Shown piece by piece: positions 1 to 8,997 of a DNA stretch of 8,997 nucleotides. Source of the DNA: a virus (Duplodnaviria > Heunggongvirae > Uroviricota > Caudoviricetes); the IMG/VR virus record IMGVR_UViG_2718218128_000006, positions 1-8,997 of that record; one strand, 5' to 3'. The translations under genes were made by a program, and so were the position numbers. Every line of letters starts with the position of its first letter. Within the stretch, counting starts at the first letter, position 1. The notes under the pieces were generated by a model. The model was given only the letters and a program-made list of their open reading frames with translations. It did not search any database and was not told the origin of the DNA.

Positions 1-29
1 GATAGCTCCTCCTGACAAAAACAGGAACG

Positions 30-440
30 ATGCCATTTGCGCGCTATTTCTGCATTTTCATAAACGTTGGTTTGGGAGAAGCGGCAAAACGGGATGTGGG
101 CACAGGGGAAAATCAGATACCGGACATGGTTTCATTTAGTGGGGTGAGGGATTTTTACGGAAAACAACTTTTGCCAGGAGGGTTGATACTCCAGTGGCTG
201 ACGATTCCATCAAGTGCAGCAGCCAAAGCTGTAACACTGAATAATGGTAATTATCAGCTGTCAGGTTATAAATGGCCCCAGTCATTTGGTGTCCTGTTTG
301 CTGTGTTTGCCACAAAAGTTTCTGGCTCGACTAACGAAGCATACGCAATCTCAGTTAATCGTCACTCTACCGATGTAATTGTCACCTGGAATGCCCGTAA
401 GGCTGATGATGTCCACATTTTAGGAATTGGGAAATTATGA
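30..440 (+). CDS. Alternative (currently silent) tail-fibre C-terminal cassette; genuine homology starts at about 67, and codons 30-66 are only open read-through upstream of the crossover site
   Basis: Encodes [21 protein letters not shown], identical to a stretch of the minus-strand fibre (1232..1888), then diverges. Promoterless in this orientation. Stop TGA 438-440 overlaps the next start (ATGA). Confidence 0.55.
55..80. other. Putative 26-bp invertase crossover site (hix/gix/pix-like), left
   Basis: TTTTCATAAACG-TT-GGTTTGGGAGAA: imperfect palindrome with an AAACG/GGTTT core around central TT; 21/26 identical to the reverse complement of the right site. Confidence 0.5.
67..128. repeat. 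Left copy of the 62-bp inverted repeat flanking the invertible segment
   Basis: Reverse complement of 1538..1599 with one mismatch (position 101, paired with 1565). Confidence 0.85.
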
Positions 441-856
441 AAATGAAATGGTCCCCATCTGTTCAGGGATTTTTCTCTGAAAACAACAGTGATATTCCCG
501 ATGATGCTTTCGATATTGAAGATGCTCTTTATTATGAACTTATGAATGGTCAGAGTACTGGGAAAATTATTATCAATAGCCCGGATAACTACCCTGTACT
601 TACTGAATATCCAGCGAAGACACAGGAACAGGAAATAGCTGAAGCGGAGGGAATGAAAAATATACTTATTGAACAAGCCAACGATTATATGAACAGTAAA
701 CAATGGCCTGGTAAAGCGGCTATTGGCCGGCTGAAAGGTGAGGAACTGGCGCAATATAATTTGTGGCTGGATTACCTGGACGCACTGGAACTGGTCGATA
801 CTTCCGGTGCGCCAGATATTGAATGGCCTACGCCGCCGGCAGTTCAGGCCAGCTAA
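437..856 (+). CDS. Tail fibre assembly protein (Tfa chaperone) of the alternative cassette
   Basis: 139 aa; C-terminal [16 protein letters not shown] matches the conserved Tfa C-terminal signature; ATG 437 is coupled to the upstream cassette stop. Confidence 0.7.
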
Positions 857-1223
857 TCTCAGGAGCCGTCGAAGTGTCGACGGCTTTTACTTCTTTTTTG
901 TAGTCCATCCAAGCAGATAGTTTTTCTTTATCTGTACTGCTGATATCACCAAGCATTAATTCCACTCGCCAGTCAGCTGTGACATTATCGGCATGAGCAA
1001 GTAACTGCATTCGCTGATTTTCCGCACGTGCGACATAATCAATCGCCGGGGATTTTAATACCGGTAAACCATTTTTATCTGACGTAATTAATTTACCCCC
1101 TTCCTGCTGTCCGGCAATTAATTCATTGTATAAGTCTGTACATATCTCAACAATGTCAGCAGGCATGTCACTGTTTATACCATCGAAGAAAAAACCATTA
1201 GTCGATTTTGAGAAATAAATCAT
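828..1223 (-). CDS. Tail fibre assembly protein (Tfa chaperone) of the currently expressed cassette
   Basis: ATG at 1223-1221 lies 8 nt after the fibre stop (TAG, 1234-1232); C-terminal [15 protein letters not shown] Tfa signature. The ORF-track start at 1253 is a TTG inside the fibre gene and was not used. Confidence 0.75.
   Translation of the reverse strand: MIYFSKSTNGFFFDGINSDMPADIVEICTDLYNELIAGQQEGGKLITSDKNGLPVLKSPAIDYVARAENQRMQLLAHADNVTADWRVELMLGDISSTDKEKLSAWMDYKKEVKAVDTSTAPEISWPELPAA
863..899 (+). terminator. Intrinsic terminator-like hairpin (9-bp perfect stem, 4-nt loop, T-rich tail) downstream of the alternative tfa, embedded in the opposite-strand tfa coding sequence
   Basis: AGCCGTCGA-AGTG-TCGACGGCT followed by TTTACTTCTTTTTTG. 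Confidence 0.5.
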
Positions 1224-1231
1224 AGATATAC

Positions 1232-1888
1232 CTATACACCGATTGCTACCCAAAAACAGGACCTTTCATATTTGACAATTTCTCCCTGAGATATACCGCC
1301 AACAATTATATAGAACTGTGATTTGCTGATATCAGAACAGTTCGCTATGCCCATTGCAGATATACCCGCCACCGACGTTGTATGTGGTACAGCCAACAGC
1401 GCAAGTGAACGATTTGGGAATGTTACCGGGTAAGTCACCGTATAGTTTGATGCTCCACTGACTATACCCCACTGAATAATCAGACCTGAAGGGAGTTTTT
1501 GAAAACCCGTTGATGAAAGTGAACTGGCAAACGCCGCCATGTCCGGTATCTGATTTTCCCCTGTCCCCACATCCCGTTTTGCCGCTTCTCCCAAACCAAG
1601 GTTTTCGAGAGCCGTTTTCACCGTGCCATCCGATTTGATATCACCAAACGGATTCTTGCGGCTTAACAGCAGGGCACGAAGCGCGGTAAGCAACTGGTCG
1701 TTTCGCCCCTTCTCCAGGCTGGCACCGGATGCCTCCACCACGCTGCAAAGCTCCTCCTGCAACATATCAAAGTAGTCATCATCCAGATTGGTAGCAGGTG
1801 TGCCAGTCTGGGGGTTACCACGGGTAAAACCGTTCTTACCCGCGCCGAACTTATCCTTCTGCGCGGTTTTCGTGTCTATACGATGCAT
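1232..1888 (-). CDS. Tail fibre protein (218 aa): constant N-terminal part (codons 1-96) fused to a variable C-terminal part inside the invertible segment
   Basis: ATG 1888-1886 with GGAG 8 nt upstream; N-terminus [20 protein letters not shown]...; residues 97-117 are encoded by the inverted repeat shared with the alternative cassette. Confidence 0.8.
1538..1599. repeat. Right copy of the 62-bp inverted repeat flanking the invertible segment
   Basis: 61/62 identity to the reverse complement of 67..128; encodes [21 protein letters not shown] in the expressed fibre. Confidence 0.85.
1586..1611. other. Putative 26-bp invertase crossover site (hix/gix/pix-like), right
   Basis: TTCTCCCAAACC-AA-GGTTTTCGAGAG; its 12-bp core AAACCAAGGTTT is the same as the hixL core as I recall it; lies inside the fibre coding sequence at the constant/variable boundary. 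Confidence 0.55.
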
Positions 1889-1891
1889 GGA

Positions 1892-2476
1892 TTACTCCGG
1901 ATATTTAAAAATTACGTAGGTATGCGACGGGCAGAGTTTGTTAAGCACACATTCGACAACGGTGTCGCCCCAGATACGCAGCGCGGAATCACAGGGATCG
2001 CCACATGTCATCCAGGTGGTGTTTGTGGCGGCTGGCATGTTGACCTGCCAGTAATACCGCCATTCCGGCGCATTCACCGCGTCAGTACAGGCCGATGAGC
2101 AGGTGAACGTGCGTTTGTCGTATCGCGTGATGGTAGCGTCTGGTCTGCCCAGGGCAGCAAGCTGTGCAAGATAAAAATTCTCGTTGATGCCGCCCGCCAG
2201 GTTAACCTTCGCATCCAGCCGTTGCTGACGCTGGCGAAGGGTCTGTGTCCCTGCGGGAATACATTCATCCGGCAGACCGCACAGACGCTCCCAGCGGTTT
2301 ATCAGTTCAGTGGTGGTGCGCGGATCCAGCTCCCGCATCAGGGCATCCGCACGCTGATGAACGCGGGTTAATGACGGTGCCGCACCGGCAATCGCCGGAT
2401 CGCTGGCTGACCACGCCGGACCGGGGGGCAACAGTGCCGACAACAGACGGATGTAATCATCGTTTGTCACGTCCAT
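1892..2476 (-). CDS. Phage tail protein, DUF2313 / YmfQ-like (Mu gp48-like), 194 aa
   Basis: Length and position between a baseplate J-like gene and the fibre gene, as in the e14 tail module; stop is 3 nt before the fibre start. Family assignment is from memory, not searched. Confidence 0.65.
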
Positions 2477-3525
2477 GAAATCGTCCCCAGTACCGCCAGT
2501 TCATTTTTTGCAATGGAGATATTGTCTGCCGGTGCAAGCAACTGATGGCTGTATTCCCCGTTCGCACCGGAAATCGCCTCACTGATACGCGATACCTTCA
2601 GTTCTCCCTGCGGATAACCATCACGCAGCAGGAGCGAACGCAACTCCGCGGTGATGGCAGCCCGTATTTCCGGTGTGTCCGGCGTCACGCGGATATGAAA
2701 ATCCACCGTATGTGCCACCGGCCTGAACACATACAAATCAGAGCCTGCCACCGGGGCCAGTGGCCCGATATGTTGTCTTGCCGCCGTTTCCGTTGATTCT
2801 TCCGGAATGGGATTAATCAGGTCACTGCTGGCAATCATCACACCGACAGTTCCCGTTCCCATCCAGTGACGGTATGTCCATGCGCGGGTAATGCCGGGCA
2901 CTTCTTTAGCCCAGACGACATAGTCCCCGTCAGCCCCACCCTGCGGCGTCCAGTAATACCGCTCAATGACGCGGGCGCGCCACGTTTCCAGCTCTTCAGT
3001 ATCAAATCCGCCTGTCAGGGTGTCAGCCACACCAGAAGACGGCAGACCATTCACCGGCGTGACCAGGATTAATGCCATACCGTCGTCAGCGTTACCGACC
3101 GCGCCTGCATTTGAGCAGGCGATCGGCACGCGCAGGACACCACCGGAGCTGGTTGCATCGGCAGTTGCCGTGTACTGAACCAGGTCATCGCGCTGAATAA
3201 CACTCCCGGCAGTCACCTTCAGGCCATCGCTGACACCTTCCCAGCGCATATACCCGCTGGCAGCCGTGGCCCCCTTGCGCGGACACCGTTTCATCGCAGC
3301 ATGTCGCGCCAGCCAGGACTCATCGCACAGGTCAGGCAGCATGTTCATTGCCAGATAATCGATGTACCCGTAAACCGTATGCAGCGCCGCCGCATACACC
3401 TTTGCCCGCACGTCTTCATCCATGCGCCGGAGCGTGTCGCTGACGTCCAGCCTGGCGAATAAATCGTTACGGAGCATACTGATATTTTCTGCCAGCGTCG
3501 GGCGCTGAAATTCACTGTCCGCCAT
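2467..3525 (-). CDS. Baseplate J-like protein (Mu gp47 / P2 gpJ family), 352 aa
   Basis: ATG 3525-3523; overlaps the downstream gene start by 10 nt; Gly/Asp-rich central region typical of baseplate J proteins; GC-rich codon usage unlike the accessory genes to its right. Confidence 0.7.
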
Positions 3526-3883
3526 GCGTTATCGCACTCCACAGATCATCAAAAGAAATCATTACCGGTCCGTCACGACGCCAGAGGGTGATACTGTTAC
3601 CCAGTTCATTAATCCCGGTGCGGCGGATATCCAGATCAATACGGGACACCACGCCGTCATCAATCATCCATTGCAGGCATTCGCGGATATACCCCCTTAC
3701 CGTCAGCACCAGCTGATTGGTCAGTTTGCTGCGCTGAAGCAGCCACAGTCGGGAGCCGTAACGGTCATTCTGTACCGCAGGCCAGGTAACCGCGGGAAAA
3801 TTTCCGAAGAAGACACCACCGAAACGCCGATGTATGTCAATCGCGGTGGTCGCCTGACTATTCTGCAGGAAGAACAGGGACAG
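3512..3883 (-). pseudogene. Remnant of an upstream baseplate gene (possibly GPW/gp25-like); 124-codon open frame with no ATG, and only one GTG (3709-3707) that would give a 65-aa product
   Basis: Frame is open from the in-frame TAA at 3886-3884 down to 3512 and overlaps the J-like start by 14 nt (operon-style), but the first 58 codons contain no canonical start codon. Confidence 0.35.
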
Positions 3884-4002: not shown

Positions 4003-4827
4003 ATGTCTCAGAACTTAGACGCAACCGCAATTAATCAAATCCATGCCCTTATTTCTGCTCAGGGTGTTAATGAAATTATCAGTAAGATTGGTGCCGATGC
4101 TGTGGCATTGCCTGAGAATTTCCGCATTCATGATCTGGAAAAATTTAATTTAAATCGCTTCCGTTTCCGTGGTGCGCTTTCCACTGCCAGCATCGATGAC
4201 TTTACCCGTTATTCTAAAGATCTTGCAGATGAAGGCACCCGCTGCTTTATCGATGCTGATAATATGCGTGCCGTCAGTGTGCTTAACCTGGGTACTATTG
4301 ATGAACCAGGTCACGCAGATAACACCGCCACACTCAAACTGAAAAAGACAGCACCGTTCTCTGCTCTGTTGTCTGTTAACGGCGAGCGTAACTCCCAGAA
4401 GTCACTAGCAGAATGGATTGAAGACTGGGCCGACTATCTTGTGGGCTTTGATGCTAATGGTGACGCTATTCAGGCAACAAAAGCGGCTGCGGCTGTCCGT
4501 AAAATCACGATTGAAGCAAACCAGACCGCTGATTTTGAAGATAATGACTTCAGCGGCAAACGCTCCCTGATGGAGTCTGTCGAAGCGAAGACCAAAGACA
4601 TTATGCCAGTGGCATTTGAATTTAAATGCGTTCCGTTTGAAGGTCTGAAAGAACGTCCGTTTAAATTACGCCTCAGTATTATCACTGGCGATCGTCCTGT
4701 ACTGGTTCTGCGCATTATTCAGCTGGAGGCGGTGCAGGAAGAAATGGCTAACGAATTTCGTGATCTGCTTGTTGAGAAATTCAAGGACAGCAAAGTAGAA
4801 ACCTTTATTGGTACTTTCACCGCCTGA
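4003..4827 (+). CDS. Prophage accessory protein, YfdQ-like (DUF2303), 274 aa
   Basis: ATG 4003 with GAGGA 6 nt upstream; first gene of a same-strand cluster whose lengths (274/178/120/101 aa) match my recollection of K-12 yfdQ-yfdR-yfdS-yfdT. Confidence 0.6.
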
Positions 4828-4839
4828 TTTCATTACTGC

Positions 4840-4861
4840 AAATGCCCCTGCGGGGGCATTT
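4840..4861 (+). terminator. Short hairpin just after the YfdQ-like stop (9-bp stem AAATGCCCC / GGGGCATTT, loop TGCG); weak terminator or attenuator candidate
   Basis: Perfect inverted repeat directly readable in the sequence; lacks a strong downstream U-tract. Confidence 0.25.
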
Positions 4862-4954
4862 ATGGAAACGTAATTTACTCAATAATCGCCGGATGGTGAG
4901 GGATTCTTTTTACCAGAATTCAGCGCGGTGCAGCGCATATACGTGGAGAACAAA

Positions 4955-5491
4955 ATGTCATTTATTAAAACTTTTTACGGGAAGCATTTTTATTATGACA
5001 GGATAAATAAAGACGACATCGATATTAACGATATCGCGGTTTCCCTTTCAAATATCTGTCGCTTTGCCGGTCATCTTTCGCACTTCTACAGCGTCGCCCA
5101 ACATGCGGTTCTTTGCAGCCAGCTGGTGCCGCAGGAATTTGCTTTTGAAGCGTTAATGCATGATGCAACAGAAGCGTATTGCCAGGACATTCCCGCACCA
5201 CTGAAACGCCTTCTTCCTGACTATAAACAAATGGAAGAAAAAATAGACGCCGTAATCCGTGAGAAATACGGGTTACCCCCAGTTATGAGTACGCCCGTGA
5301 AATATGCCGATCTCATCATGCTGGCAACCGAACGCCGCGATCTCGGGCTTGATGATGGCTCTTTCTGGCCTGTACTGGAAGGTATCCCGGCAACAGAGAT
5401 GTTCAACGTGATTCCACTGGCACCGGGCCATGCCTACGGGATGTTTATGGAACGCTTTAACGAGTTATCGGAGTTACGCAAATGCGCATGA
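4955..5491 (+). CDS. HD-domain phosphohydrolase, YfdR-like (5'-deoxynucleotidase family), 178 aa
   Basis: ATG 4955 with GGAGAA upstream (preferred over the GTG at 4928, which lacks an RBS); HD motifs in SVAQHAV and LMHDATEAY (HD codons at 5159..5164). Confidence 0.75.
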   Translation: MSFIKTFYGKHFYYDRINKDDIDINDIAVSLSNICRFAGHLSHFYSVAQHAVLCSQLVPQEFAFEALMHDATEAYCQDIPAPLKRLLPDYKQMEEKIDAVIREKYGLPPVMSTPVKYADLIMLATERRDLGLDDGSFWPVLEGIPATEMFNVIPLAPGHAYGMFMERFNELSELRKCA

Positions 5492-5844
5492 ATGTTTTCG
5501 AAATGGAAGGGTTTCTTCGTGGGAGATGTGTACCGCGAGATCTGAAAGTAAATGAAACAGATGCTGAATACCTAGTGCGTAAATTCGATGCGCTTGAAGC
5601 TAAATGTGCAGCACAGGAAAACAAAGTAATACCAGTGTCAACTGAACTGCCACCAGCAAATGAAAGTGTTTTGTTATTCGATGCTAACGGAGAAGGCTGG
5701 CTAATTGGCTGGCGTTCTCTCTGGTACACCTGGGGACAAAAAGAAACCGGAGAATGGCAGTGGACATTTCAGGTCGGGGACCTTGAAAACGTCAATATCA
5801 CTCACTGGGCAGTAATGCCAAAAGCACCGGAGGCTGGAGCATAA
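5482..5844 (+). CDS. DUF551-family prophage protein, YfdS-like, 120 aa
   Basis: ATG 5482 with GGAG 8 nt upstream; overlaps the preceding stop by 10 nt; C-terminal W-rich region ending ITHWAVMPKAP is typical of DUF551. Confidence 0.6.
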   Translation: MRMNVFEMEGFLRGRCVPRDLKVNETDAEYLVRKFDALEAKCAAQENKVIPVSTELPPANESVLLFDANGEGWLIGWRSLWYTWGQKETGEWQWTFQVGDLENVNITHWAVMPKAPEAGA

Positions 5845-6149
5845 TGACCACTTTTACCGACAAAGAACTGATTAAAGAAATTAAAGAGCGTATCAGCAGC
5901 CTTGACGTGCGAGACGATATTGAGCGCCGTGCTTATGAAATCGCACTCCTATCTCTGGAAGTAGAACCAGATGAACGCGAAGCTTATGAATTATTCATGG
6001 AAAAGCGTTTCGGTGACTTAGTAGATCGTCGGAGAGCAAAAAACGGCGATAACGAATACATGGCATGGGATATGACTCTCGGTTGGATCGTCTGGCAGCA
6101 ACGAGCTGGTATCCATTTTTCAACAATGTCACAGCAAGAGGTGAAATAA
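5844..6149 (+). CDS. Small prophage early protein, YfdT-like, 101 aa
   Basis: Start overlaps the upstream stop (TAATG at 5842-5846); GGAG 4 nt upstream; stop overlaps the xis start (TAATG at 6147-6151). Confidence 0.5.
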   Translation: MTTFTDKELIKEIKERISSLDVRDDIERRAYEIALLSLEVEPDEREAYELFMEKRFGDLVDRRRAKNGDNEYMAWDMTLGWIVWQQRAGIHFSTMSQQEVK

Positions 6150-6499
6150 TGGAGCCATACAGCCTCACACTCGATGAGGCCTGTCATTTTCTCAAGATAT
6201 CCAGACCGACTGCCATTAACTGGATACGCACAGGGCGTCTTCAGGCAACACGCAAAGATCCCACTAAGAATAAATCTCCTTACCTCACAACACGACAAGC
6301 CTGCATTGCGGCTCTTCAGTCTCCGCTGCATACTGTCCAGGTGAGCGCGGGTGATGGCATAACAGAGGAAAGAAAATGTCACTCTTCCGCAGAGGTGAAA
6401 TATGGTACGCCAGTTTCACATTGCCGAACGGTAAAAGATTTAAACAGTCTCTTGGAACAAAGGACAAAAGGCAGGCGACAGAACTCCATGACAAGCTAA
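6149..6499 (+). CDS. xis: Excisionase / recombination directionality factor (P22 Xis-like, 116 aa, HTH)
   Basis: ATG 6149 with AGAGGTGA upstream; N-terminal HTH-like [26 protein letters not shown]; lies immediately upstream of int and overlaps it out of frame. The ORF-track start at 6065 lacks an RBS and lies inside the upstream gene. Confidence 0.7.
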
Positions 6500-7539
6500 A
6501 GGCTGAAGCATGGCGGGTCAGCAAACTTGGTGAAATACCTGATATAACGTTCGAGGAAGCGTGTGTCAGGTGGCTTGAAGAGAAAGCACATAAAAAATCA
6601 CTGGACGATGACAAAAGCCGGATCGGATTCTGGCTTCAACATTTCGCAGGAATGCAACTAAGAGACATTACTGAATCAAAAATTTATTCAGCAATGCAGA
6701 AAATGACGAACCGGCGTCATGAGGAAAACTGGAAACTCAGGGCAGAAGCATGCAGAAAAAAAGGGAAACCTGTTCCAGAATACACGCCAAAACCAGCGTC
6801 CGTTGCAACGAAGGCTACGCATCTTTCATTTATAAAGGCCCTACTAAGAGCCGCAGAGCGTGAATGGAAAATGCTGGATAAGGCACCAATTATTAAAGTG
6901 CCCCAACCAAAGAATAAACGGATCCGCTGGCTGGAGCCCCATGAAGCACAAAGGCTGATTGATGAATGTCCGGAGCCATTAAAGTCTGTTGTTGAATTTG
7001 CACTGGCAACAGGCCTAAGACGCTCGAACATCATCAACCTTGAATGGCAACAAATAGATATGCAGCGCCGGGTGGCATGGATAAACCCGGAAGAGAGTAA
7101 ATCAAACCGCGCAATTGGCGTTGCGCTGAATGATACTGCATGTCGCGTATTGAAAAAACAAATCGGGAATCATCACCGTTGGGTATTTGTGTACAAGGAA
7201 AGCTGTACCAAACCAGACGGAACGAAAGCGCCAACAGTCAGGAAGATGCGGTATGACGCAAACACAGCCTGGAAAGCGGCGCTGAGACGGGCTGGTATTG
7301 ATGATTTCAGATTTCACGACTTGAGACACACTTGGGCAAGTTGGCTGGTTCAAGCCGGAGTCCCGTTGTCAGTGTTACAGGAAATGGGAGGCTGGGAGTC
7401 TATCGAAATGGTTCGTCGATATGCTCACCTTGCACCTAATCACCTTACCGAACACGCACGGCAAATAGACTCGATCCTAAACCCATCGGTCCCAAATTTG
7501 TCCCAGTCAAAAAATAAGGAAGGTACTAATGATGTGTAA
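6376..7539 (+). CDS. int: Site-specific tyrosine integrase (P22-type Int), 387 aa
   Basis: GAGGAA RBS; C-terminal catalytic signature [10 protein letters not shown] ... RRYAHL (H-x-x-R and Tyr); ends 14 nt from the tRNA-Thr 3' end. Resemblance to P22 Int is recalled, not searched. Confidence 0.9.
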
Positions 7540-7553
7540 CTTATTGATTTAAA

Positions 7554-7629
7554 TGGTGCCGATAATAGGAGTCGAACCTACGACCTTCGCATTACGAATG
7601 CGCTGCTCTACCAACTGAGCTATATCGGC
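7554..7629 (-). tRNA. thrW: tRNA-Thr, anticodon CGU, 76 nt including the encoded CCA
   Basis: Minus strand reads GCCGATATAGCTCAGTTGGTAGAGCAGCGCATTCGTAATGCGAAGGTCGTAGGTTCGACTCCTATTATCGGCACCA; folds as a cloverleaf by eye; anticodon CGT corresponds to 7594..7596. Confidence 0.9.
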
Positions 7630-7670: not shown

Positions 7671-7746
7671 GGTTAAAACTAACCGGGCGATGCGTCAATG
7701 GCCTTGTGAATCAAATGGCTACTTTTGCATCACCCGGTTTTATTTA
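7671..7746. terminator. Bidirectional terminator-like hairpin between thrW and proA (13-bp stem, one G-U pair, 33-nt loop)
   Basis: Arms 7681..7693 (AACCGGGCGATGC) and 7727..7739 (GCATCACCCGGTT); U-rich tails on both strands (TTTTATTT on plus, AGTTTTAA on minus). The loop is long for a classical terminator. Confidence 0.35.
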
Positions 7747-8997
7747 CGCACGAATGGTGTAATCACCAATGCCGATCCACTTGTAAGTGGTCAGTGCTTC
7801 CAGCCCCATTGGGCCACGCGCGTGGAGTTTTTGTGTGCTTACCGCCACTTCCGCACCCAGACCAAACTGGCCGCCGTCGGTAAAACGCGTAGAGGCGTTA
7901 ACGTAAACAGCGGACGAATCCACTTCGTTAACAAAACGCTGGGCGTTGCGCATATCGCGGGTCAGGATCGCATCGGAGTGTTGTGTGCCGTGTTCACGAA
8001 TATGGGCGATGGCATCGTCAAGATCGCTGACGATTTTAACGTTCAAATCTAATGACAGAAATTCATCGTCATACTCTTCGGCTTTAACCGCCACCACCTT
8101 CGCAGGGCCTGTCTGCAACTGCGCCAGCGCAGCTGCATCTGCGTGTAATGTCACGCCGCTTTCCGCCATTTGTTTGCTTAATGCGGGCAGGAAGCTATCG
8201 GCGATGTTTTTATTCACCAGCAACGTTTCTACCGTATTACATGTGCTCGGTCGCTGAGTTTTCGCGTTGACGATCACTTTTAATGCTTCAGCGATCTCTG
8301 CGCTTTCATCAACGTAAATATGGCATACGCCTATACCACCTGTGATCACCGGGATTGTCGACTGTTCGCGGCACAGTTTATGCAAACCAGCCCCGCCGCG
8401 CGGGATCAGCATGTCGATGTATTTATCCATACGCAGCATTTCACTGACCAGCGCACGGTCAGGATTATCAATCGCCTGCACGGCACCCGCCGGTAAGCCA
8501 CAGGATTTCAGGGCGTCCTGAATCACCGCCACCGTTGCCGCGTTAGTGCGACAGGTTTCTTTGCCACCACGCAGGATCACCGCATTACCGGTTTTCAGGC
8601 ACAGCGAAGCGACATCAACCGTCACGTTCGGGCGCGCTTCATAAATCACGCCAATCACCCCCAGCGGCACGCGACGACGCTCAAGACGCAGGCCGCTGTC
8701 CAGTACGCTGCCATCGATTACCTGCCCCACCGGATCGGCGAGGTTACACACCTGGCGCACATCATCGGCAATGCCTTTCAGCCGTGCGGGCGTCAGTGCC
8801 AGACGGTCAAGCATCGCTTCGCCAAGGCCATTGGCACGCGCGTCAGCAACATCCTGGGCGTTAGCGTTGAGGATGATTTCGCTTTGTGCTTCCAGTTCAT
8901 CGGCGATTTTTTCCAGCACGCGATTTTTTTCGCGGCTGGAGAGTTGCGCTAATTTATACGAGGCTTGCTTCGCGGCAATGCCCATTTGTTCCAGCAT
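7744..8997 (-). CDS. proA: Gamma-glutamyl phosphate reductase (glutamate-5-semialdehyde dehydrogenase), full length, 417 aa
   Basis: ATG at the window edge (8997-8995); protein [20 protein letters not shown]... matches enterobacterial ProA as I recall it; the window ends exactly at its start, so proB should follow. Confidence 0.95.

Follow-up and report, generated by a model that had tools for sequence, protein, structure and literature searches.

Our analysis indicates that the window, an 8,997-nt stretch of the E. coli S3 chromosome at thrW/proA, very probably carries an e14-type P segment. This is a two-site substrate of a serine invertase (Pin) that swaps the C-terminal receptor-binding tip of a short tail fibre together with its Tfa chaperone, and in S3 it has been orphaned by the loss of pinE and is essentially locked. 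The host element is a remnant of an SfV/e14-family prophage at thrW, and the gene order of the remnant is that of the K-12 e14 P segment (jayE'-ymfQ-stfP-tfaP-tfaE-stfE-pinE). An earlier reading, made from the DNA letters only (hereafter the sequence-only reading), had recognized an invertible fibre segment of the Gin/Hin/Cin/Pin type. This assignment is supported by the geometry of the repeats, by the reading frame across them and by the occurrence of both orientations in near-isogenic pairs of genomes. The features on which the analysis is based are listed in Table 1.

The segment is bounded by a 68-nt inverted repeat whose arms are 97% complementary, with two mismatches, of which one (66/1600) falls in the outer half-site and the other is at 101/1565. 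The chance expectation of such an inverted repeat in 9 kb is ~4e-28. The 62-bp repeat with a single mismatch (67-128 and 1538-1599) that had been described previously is correct and represents the core of this longer repeat. Two inverted 26-bp imperfect palindromes with matching 2-bp cores, the arrangement of a serine-invertase system, were also found where the sequence-only reading had placed them; their self-complementarity is 16/26 and 18/26. These are the sites of e14. Alignment showed that the invertase-proximal site agrees at all 26 bp with its counterpart beside pinE in the P segment of K-12 e14, and the constant-region site, read as its reverse complement CTCTCGAAAACCTTGGTTTGGGAGAA, is the same as that within K-12 stfP. 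The core motif occurs at just these two places in the window, and none of 200 shuffles reached four matches. We therefore regard this as a two-site system and not a multi-site shufflon. A Min/shufflon-like system with multiple sites was ruled out on the same grounds, as the window contains no extra crossover sites.

Table 1. Features of the invertible segment and of the surrounding prophage remnant in the window.
Feature	Position	Strand	Remarks
Spacer, crossover site to start codon of truncated invertase	1..29		ATG on - strand, just left of base 1
Silent alternative tip (cassette 2; tip 2)	30..440	+	StfE-like ORF; 12-codon leader outside segment
Invertase-proximal crossover site, 26 bp	55..80		TTTTCATAAACG-TT-GGTTTGGGAGAA; central TT 67-68
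Left repeat arm	62..129		Encodes 20 residues common to both fibre forms
Invertible segment	69..1597		Two variable tips and two Tfa chaperones
Tfa chaperone of cassette 2	437..856	+	Caudo_TAP, E 2.4e-22; phrog_188, E 5e-51
Tfa chaperone of cassette 1	828..1223	-	Caudo_TAP, E 1.4e-23; 35% identity to other Tfa
Tail fibre as assembled, 218 aa	1232..1888	-	Constant codons 1-96 (1888..1601) + tip 1 (gp53-like)
Right repeat arm	1537..1604		Base 1565 (reverse complement G vs left-arm C at 101) private to S3
Constant-region crossover site, 26 bp	1586..1611		TTCTCCCAAACC-AA-GGTTTTCGAGAG; central AA 1598-1599; fibre codons 93-101
YmfQ/Mu gp48	1892-2476	-	Pfam
Baseplate J/gp47	2467-3525	-	Pfam
gp46, 5'-truncated	3512-~3788	-	Pfam
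Prophage integrase	6376-7539	+	Pfam/annotation
tRNA-Thr thrW	7554-7629	-	Integrase attachment target
proA	7744-8997	-	Adjoins thrW

The crossover preserves the reading frame of the fibre. In the minus-strand ORF (1888..1232), codon 97 is CTT at 1600-1598, and codon 13 of the ORF at 30..440 is GTT at 66-68, which places the central dinucleotide at codon positions 2-3 in both fibre ORFs. In-silico inversion yielded an uninterrupted in-frame fibre of 220 aa, and this fusion is nearly identical to a 220-aa protein annotated in strain DAM. These results bear out the proposal of the sequence-only reading that the right site is crossed at codon 97 and that the alternative cassette is in frame. An in-frame fusion of tip 2 with the constant part is present not only in DAM but also in the P2-like Escherichia phage Cartapus (NC_070909). 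A YmfQ-StfP constant region, a crossover at about codon 97 and an open frame in both orientations, which are expected of an e14-type segment, were thus all present. Residues 1-100 of the S3 fibre are ~97% identical to K-12 StfP, and the 12-codon leader of the ORF at 30..440 matches that of K-12 StfE (MPFACYFFIFIN). The fibre gene as assembled matches Pfam Gp53-like_C (E 7.5e-15) and the tail fibre family phrog_1396 (E 2e-73).

As in e14, two convergent Tfa genes, one per tip, lie inside the segment, where they overlap by 29 bp. That each cassette has its own convergent chaperone gene had been read from the sequence, and the Caudo_TAP matches of both products confirm it. A strong hairpin with a T-run was detected by a terminator scan at 861-888, between the convergent tfa genes. 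With regard to the tips, the sequence-only reading had seen no obvious similarity after the repeat. This view has to be softened: the divergence stands, but the tip-to-tip BLASTP similarity extends ~20 residues beyond the repeat, and both tips match the C-terminus of the same family, phrog_2557 (E 1e-41 for tip 2 and 4e-42 for the other). Pfam Gp53-like_C is also matched by both, by one above the cut-off and by the other below it. A search of solved structures with the sequence of tip 1 gave a weak match only, to the AP22 gp53-like protein 4mtm (E 1e-4). The two tips are divergent relatives and not unrelated domains. They differ from the tips of K-12 StfP and StfE, with which similarity ends shortly past the crossover region.

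The element that houses the segment has retained int, a few early genes, gp46', J, YmfQ and the fibre, and has lost nearly everything else. Annotation and Pfam searches found no sheath, tube, tape measure, head or lysis genes in it, in agreement with its earlier description as a degenerate prophage that lacks head and lysis genes. The stretch from 1538 to 3788, which covers gp46, J, YmfQ and the constant region of the fibre, shares 97% identity with the active, serotype-converting Shigella phages SfI, SfII, SfIV and SfV. Alignment with the fuller prophage of STK78-E places a deletion junction at ~3788, where homology stops, and the flank of the S3 remnant is 100% identical to the flank of this much more complete prophage. 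As these two identities show, the S3 remnant is young, and its intact ORFs therefore require no special explanation. The sequence-only reading had singled out the preservation of both cassettes and both chaperones without head or lysis genes; e14, however, is in precisely that state. It had also described a host-range switch. Judged by its gene content, the S3 element cannot build a virion or a tail to carry the fibre, and the switch therefore has no host-range role for this element. A promoter/terminator scan of the remnant revealed no sigma-70-like candidate above chance for a fibre-operon promoter, and expression of the fibre is uncertain for this reason.

Among known systems, the e14 P segment consists of stfP-tfaP-tfaE-stfE with pinE (Plasterk & van de Putte 1985 and Mehta et al. 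2004, both as cited in PMC4272514). S3 and e14 share the order J'-ymfQ-stf-tfa / tfa-stf'-pin, both 26-bp sites and the StfE-like leader, and in each case the prophage around the segment is defective, lacks head and lysis genes and has a restriction gene adjoining pin. In contrast, e14 is integrated at icd and the S3 element at thrW; the sequence shared at the repeat is ~16-20 nt in e14 and 68 nt in S3; the segment measures 1.8 kb versus 1.53 kb; and beyond the repeat the tips and chaperones of e14 are unlike those of S3. In S3 pinE is truncated, and DUF262/type ISP restriction-modification cargo stands where e14 has mcrA. The G segment of Mu with Gin and the C segment of P1 with Cin are also alike, in that two-site inversion joins a constant N-terminus to alternative C-termini, each with its chaperone (U/U'), at 26-bp sites with a 2-bp core, and in that the invertase gene abuts the side of the segment away from the constant part. 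They differ in that the S3 invertase is of the PinE type and dead, and the S3 element is no viable phage. The constant part of the S3 fibre has weak sequence similarity to Mu S, the only match, itself weak, that it gave in the search of solved structures (5yvq/8ju3, E ~0.05); Mu S is ~500 aa long, whereas the S3 fibre is 218-220 aa. Phages SfI, SfII, SfIV and SfV also integrate at thrW next to proA (PMC3636060). However, their similarity to S3 goes no further than position 1538, the inner edge of the repeat, and at the megablast level their records gave no match to the invertible cassettes. In Cartapus, by contrast, the region equivalent to 64-1604 of the window is 97% identical and includes both tips, both chaperones and both sites. 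There the phage genome is complete, and the module comes after a P2 H-like fibre of 473 aa and beside an intact invertase of 188 aa. This distribution shows that one and the same module of cassettes travels between SfV/e14-like and P2-like phages.

The switch had been described as apparently intact. This is true of its DNA substrate only, as the cognate invertase is truncated after codon 41; the switch is therefore an orphan in S3. The region upstream of coordinate 1, where the sequence-only reading had recommended a search for a serine invertase, contains a pinE pseudogene whose 41 codons are 100% identical to PinE and are followed by unrelated sequence and a stop. The annotation of this stump (L001:11818-12000) reads 'recombinase family protein, incomplete', and the cargo beyond it consists of DUF262 and type ISP restriction genes. 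No functional serine invertase is adjacent to or inside the segment in S3, whereas ANT, DAM and Cartapus have a full invertase gene at the same position. The S3 assembly is a single chromosome. Blastn with the junction and pinE stump as query, a search blind to PinQ-type genes, found no second PinE-like gene in it. Moreover, e14 is absent from icd, which is followed directly by iraM, and pinR is absent from the Rac-like prophage, where tfaR is followed by sitDCBA. Synteny, however, led to an intact pinQ in Qin, 1.35 Mb away, whose product is 100% identical to K-12 PinQ. A genome without any serine invertase, which the sequence-only reading would have held against a switch if long reads also showed a single orientation, is thus not what S3 presents.

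Based on these observations, we propose that an invertase dimer would bind each 26-bp site and that the dimers would form a tetramer with Fis bound to an enhancer, the dependence on Fis and enhancer being presumed. Cleavage by the tetramer at the TT/AA dinucleotides in the site centres (67-68 and 1598-1599) would be followed by rotation. Rejoining would link codons 1-96 either to tip 1, giving the present 218-aa state, or to tip 2, giving 220 aa. In S3, flipping would occur only through a trans-acting invertase or through rare homologous recombination between the 68-bp arms. PinQ of Qin is the obvious trans candidate and may have been the agent of the S3 flip. According to Kirigo et al. (2025, PMC12529663), each of the invertases PinQ, PinR and PinE inverts the P segment of e14 at TTGGTTTGGGAGAAGG repeats, and PinQ is 38% identical to PinE at the protein level (PMC12529663). 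Nevertheless, deletion of pinE locks the e14 P segment even with chromosomal pinQ (Kirigo et al. 2025, PMC12529663), which argues that native PinQ levels may not suffice or that pinE sequence may be needed in cis. Since the alignment shows that pinE homology in S3 reaches ~191 bp from the site centre, and the Hin enhancer lies ~100-165 bp from hixL (PMC3798978), it is plausible by analogy that a cis Fis-dependent enhancer is retained in the 123-bp pinE stump.

The segment occurs in both orientations in nature, as judged by comparison between strains. ANT and DAM have identical flanks and carry it in opposite orientations, as do N24 and N17, a near-isogenic pair, and the S3 segment is inverted relative to that of STK78-E, which has the identical pinE junction. 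This truncation junction is present in 297 genomes. Among genomes with the truncated invertase, 44 have one orientation and S3 alone has the other, whereas those with an intact invertase are split 25 versus 42 (Fisher p = 6e-6, with kinship ignored, so that the 44 genomes may be few independent lineages). These counts therefore suggest that the switch is largely frozen by the pinE truncation, with rare escapes such as S3. S3 itself has undergone at least one flip since pinE was truncated. It is highly improbable that its orientation is an artefact of assembly or of a mixed culture and says nothing about flipping after truncation. S3 is represented by a single assembly in the collection, and repeat-bounded invertible segments are a classic source of orientation ambiguity. 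However, the reads from which a single-contig chromosome was closed are much longer than the 68-bp arms and would span them, giving the orientation directly, and a mixed culture would itself mean that the switch flips.

With the flip in mind, we compared S3 and STK78-E inside the segment. They differ there by ~15 clustered SNPs (~960-1493), the remainder being almost identical. The arms of STK78-E are identical and the sole difference in those of S3 is a private SNP, hence uninformative on the exchange point, so that the flip may have been either site-specific or RecA-mediated. The SNP cluster beside a 100% identical flank marks the segment as a recombination hot spot, and Cartapus is an example of an unrelated phage backbone with the same module. 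The arms are also long and nearly free of mismatches, and the invertase in cis is dead. All of this would fit an S3 orientation that arose without any invertase, by RecA recombination between the arms or by import of the whole segment, already so oriented, through homologous recombination with a related phage or prophage, with the locus now an inert fossil. We consider this unlikely. RecA would act poorly on a homology of 68 bp, in comparison with a dedicated site-specific system; S3 possesses PinQ, an invertase competent to act in trans; and the near identity to STK78-E outside the SNP cluster fits inversion in situ better than wholesale replacement.

The presence of PinQ raises another possibility, namely that the S3 switch still varies in phase, is driven by PinQ in trans and is kept for a benefit to the host, as in K-12 e14. 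The S3 PinQ is the K-12 enzyme and the crossover sites are those of e14, the StfE-like 12-codon leader is conserved, the orientation differs from that of 44 relatives with the same dead pinE, and the ~191 bp of pinE-side sequence leave room for a Hin-like enhancer. There is also a precedent in K-12 e14, where an StfE2 chimera made by inversion blocks adsorption of phage T2 (PMC12529663). If the host does benefit, what matters could be the product of the pin-proximal ORF, either as 30..440 or in inverted form, and not a virion fibre. We nevertheless view this possibility as tentative and somewhat unlikely. The 44:1 split is the pattern of a locked switch, as opposed to 42:25 with an intact invertase, and the K-12 segment is locked by pinE deletion despite pinQ (PMC12529663). 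In addition, no promoter is evident, and the S3 tips are unlike those of K-12 StfP and StfE, so the T2-blocking activity is not transferable by homology. We therefore retain the interpretation of an orphaned e14-type segment that is essentially locked.

In conclusion, the S3 segment is a known kind of switch, and on its own a textbook Pin-type fibre switch adds little; it is ordinary apart from its orphan state, its own invertase gene having been cut off. A bolder possibility is that the orphan switch is still flipped by PinQ and is kept by the host as a phase-variable surface or defence function with different phage targets, the 297 genomes being rewired rather than decayed. We regard this as decidedly doubtful. 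If true, however, these 297 truncation carriers, with the switch beside restriction cargo, would be a natural rewired version of the PinQ/StfE2 anti-T2 defence. The value of the locus is modest and lies in the natural experiment that it provides, since one pinE truncation has been inherited by hundreds of sequenced E. coli. It poses the question of whether such switches keep flipping through the invertases of other prophages, and the orientation counts are relevant to recent work claiming that invertases of cryptic prophages act in trans in defence against phages.

Our analysis has shown that the window matches NZ_CP010228.1, the chromosome of E. coli strain S3, with 100% identity (starting at 3,143,606) and that its switch falls within a family known for a long time, its closest relative being the e14 P segment of K-12. 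The gene order at the locus, gp46'-J-YmfQ-fibre-[tfa / tfa-tip]-invertase, corresponds to jayE'-ymfQ-stfP-tfaP-tfaE-stfE-pinE-mcrA of e14, the fibre shares about 97% identity with StfP over residues 1-100, and both crossover sites match their e14 counterparts at every base. In contrast to e14, however, the two cassettes of the S3 locus are different ones and its cis invertase is dead. The tail genes at 1538-3788 share 97% identity with their counterparts in the Shigella phages SfI, SfII, SfIV and SfV; SfI integrates at thrW beside proA and has been described as a close e14 relative (PMC3636060). The invertible module (64-1604) is also 97% identical to L012:3501-5041 of the P2-like phage Cartapus (NC_070909), although there it follows another, unrelated 473-aa fibre and adjoins an intact invertase. 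Thus, the locus is an e14/SfV-family P segment whose cassette pair also circulates in P2-like phages. The module, crossover sites included, moves between phage families.

Coordinates of features in the window
Feature	Position	Strand	Sequence or remark
26-bp crossover site	55-80		TTTTCATAAACG-TT-GGTTTGGGAGAA
26-bp crossover site	1586-1611		TTCTCCCAAACC-AA-GGTTTTCGAGAG
Inverted repeat arms	62-129 / 1537-1604		68 nt, 97% complementary
Hairpin	861-888		at tfa/tfa overlap
Early-region genes	4003-6149		between deletion junction and integrase
Tyrosine integrase	6376-7539		right end of window
tRNA-Thr thrW	7554-7629		right end of window
proA	7744-8997	-	right end of window

The 62-bp, one-mismatch repeat core described in the sequence-only reading was recovered by a repeat finder within slightly longer arms with two mismatches (66/1600 and 101/1565), the former in the outer half-site, where divergence is expected. 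Such repeats have a chance expectation of about 4e-28 in 9 kb. The core motif is confined to the two sites, a count reached in none of 200 shuffles (0/200), and this is a simple two-site system. The e14 P segment flanked by these sites is reported to be inverted by PinE, PinQ and PinR (PMC12529663), and it phase-varies in MG1655 cultures (PMC4272514). In both fibre ORFs the central dinucleotide forms codon positions 2-3 (codon 97, 1600-1598, of the minus-strand ORF 1888..1232; codon 13, 66-68, of ORF 30..440). In-silico inversion of 67..1599 replaces the present 218-aa fibre with an open 220-aa one, and the same fusion, near-identical in sequence, is annotated in strain DAM; the in-frame fusion claimed for the alternative cassette is real. 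The ORF starting at 30 shares with K-12 StfE a conserved 12-codon leader at 30-68 (MPFACYFFIFIN in the StfE version). Since this leader lies outside the segment, inversion also exchanges the tip of the short pin-proximal ORF (136 aa vs 134 aa), the type reported as StfE2 (PMC12529663).

Each cassette has its own chaperone, as had been proposed: each of the two internal chaperones has a Caudo_TAP match (E 2e-22 and 1e-23), and their convergent genes overlap by 29 bp. A strong hairpin at this overlap, with a 12-bp stem followed by a T-run, is a possible candidate for the terminator of the plus-strand cassette. The suggestion that the tips share no obvious similarity after the repeat must be softened. 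BLASTP similarity extends about 20 residues beyond it, both tips match the phrog_2557 C-terminus (E about 1e-41), and Pfam Gp53-like_C is matched by tip 1 (E 7.5e-15) and, below the cut-off, by tip 2 (E 2e-3). Judged from these matches, the two tips are divergent relatives.

The switch had been called apparently intact. This applies to the DNA substrate only, because the invertase gene directly left of window base 1 is a pseudogene: codons 1-41 are 100% identical to PinE, and unrelated sequence and a stop follow. The same truncation junction is found in 297 of 5,426 complete E. coli genomes, so the truncation is old and inherited. The stump abuts two cargo genes (all at L001:5990-12000, in a 26-kb region where window base 1 is L001:12001): one encodes a DUF262 protein of 629 aa, the other a restriction-modification enzyme of type ISP, and they fill the slot next to pinE held by mcrA in K-12 e14. 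This slot is a prophage-end "defence cargo" position. A second, different DUF262 protein is encoded in the Rac-like prophage of S3 (L009:31332-33014).

The S3 assembly is the chromosome only, the neighbouring accessions being strains S1 and S10. A blastn search with the junction and pinE stump as query hit a single S3 location, so S3 has no further gene of the PinE-like type; the icd site lacks e14, and pinR is absent from the Rac-like prophage, where sitABCD adjoins tfaR. S3 does have a Qin prophage, in which pinQ (1,790,927-1,791,517) is intact and encodes a protein 100% identical to K-12 PinQ. S3 therefore possesses a serine invertase; in the sequence-only reading, the absence of any such gene from the genome, together with a single orientation in deep long-read data, would have refuted the proposal.

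The switch flips in nature. Strains ANT and DAM, both from Lebanese seawater (4,603,065 and 4,603,072 bp), share protein accessions and IS1 copies across an 18 kb flank and carry the module, with intact pinE, in opposite orientations; N24 and N17 also carry it in opposite orientations at one chromosomal position. In STK78-E the truncation junction is identical and the segment is inverted relative to S3, so the orphan switch has flipped at least once. Among genomes with the truncated stump, tip 1 lies next to the invertase in 44 and tip 2 in S3 only, versus 42 and 25 genomes, respectively, with an intact invertase (Fisher's exact p = 6e-6 for orientation vs invertase state, indicative only as shared ancestry is ignored). 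The simplest reading is that without pinE the switch is largely frozen, S3 being a rare escape, in agreement with the reported locking of the K-12 P segment by pinE deletion although pinQ is present (PMC12529663). The enhancer that invertases require in cis lies, in the Hin system, about 100-165 bp from hixL (PMC3798978), and in S3 the PinE-like sequence reaches out to some 191 bp from the centre of the site, which suggests that the enhancer may survive. The S3 flip may have been either site-specific or RecA-mediated, as the STK78-E arms are identical to each other and the sole arm difference in S3 is private to it. Within the segment the two strains show roughly 15 differences, clustered at about 960-1493 (tip-1 and chaperone region), with the flank and remaining segment almost identical; this pattern suggests a gene-conversion patch.

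The integrase, thrW and proA at the right end identify the element as a prophage remnant integrated at thrW. Homology to the fuller STK78-E prophage ends in gp46 at the deletion junction (about 3788/3789), where sequence from upstream of a yfdQ-like gene follows directly; a single step thus removed the genes for sheath, tube, tape measure, head, lysis and replication. The early-region genes beyond are homologous to yfdQ, yfdR and yfdT of prophage CPS-53 in K-12 and encode a DUF2303 protein, a 5'-deoxynucleotidase with an HD domain and small phage proteins. The flank at the pinE truncation junction is 100% identical in STK78-E, whose copy retains its genes for the baseplate, DNA circularisation and the tape measure, along with the first part of a tail-assembly gene. 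The S3 remnant is recent. Intact cassettes in an element devoid of head and lysis genes are thus not the striking feature they had seemed, since e14 is in the same state. Overall, the original observation, of an e14-type invertible fibre segment, is confirmed, and its interpretation is partly supported.

No promoter-like site stood out in a promoter scan of the fibre operon. The S3 element lacks genes for sheath, tube, tape measure, head and lysis, and the fibre cannot act as its host-range determinant. For a switch of this kind in a cryptic prophage, the anti-T2 effect of PinQ/StfE2 is the one function published (PMC12529663). The S3 tips differ from those of K-12, so homology gives no ground for assigning this phenotype to S3. 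The locus otherwise belongs to a known family, and its useful angle is as a natural experiment on whether orphaned switches remain driven in trans.
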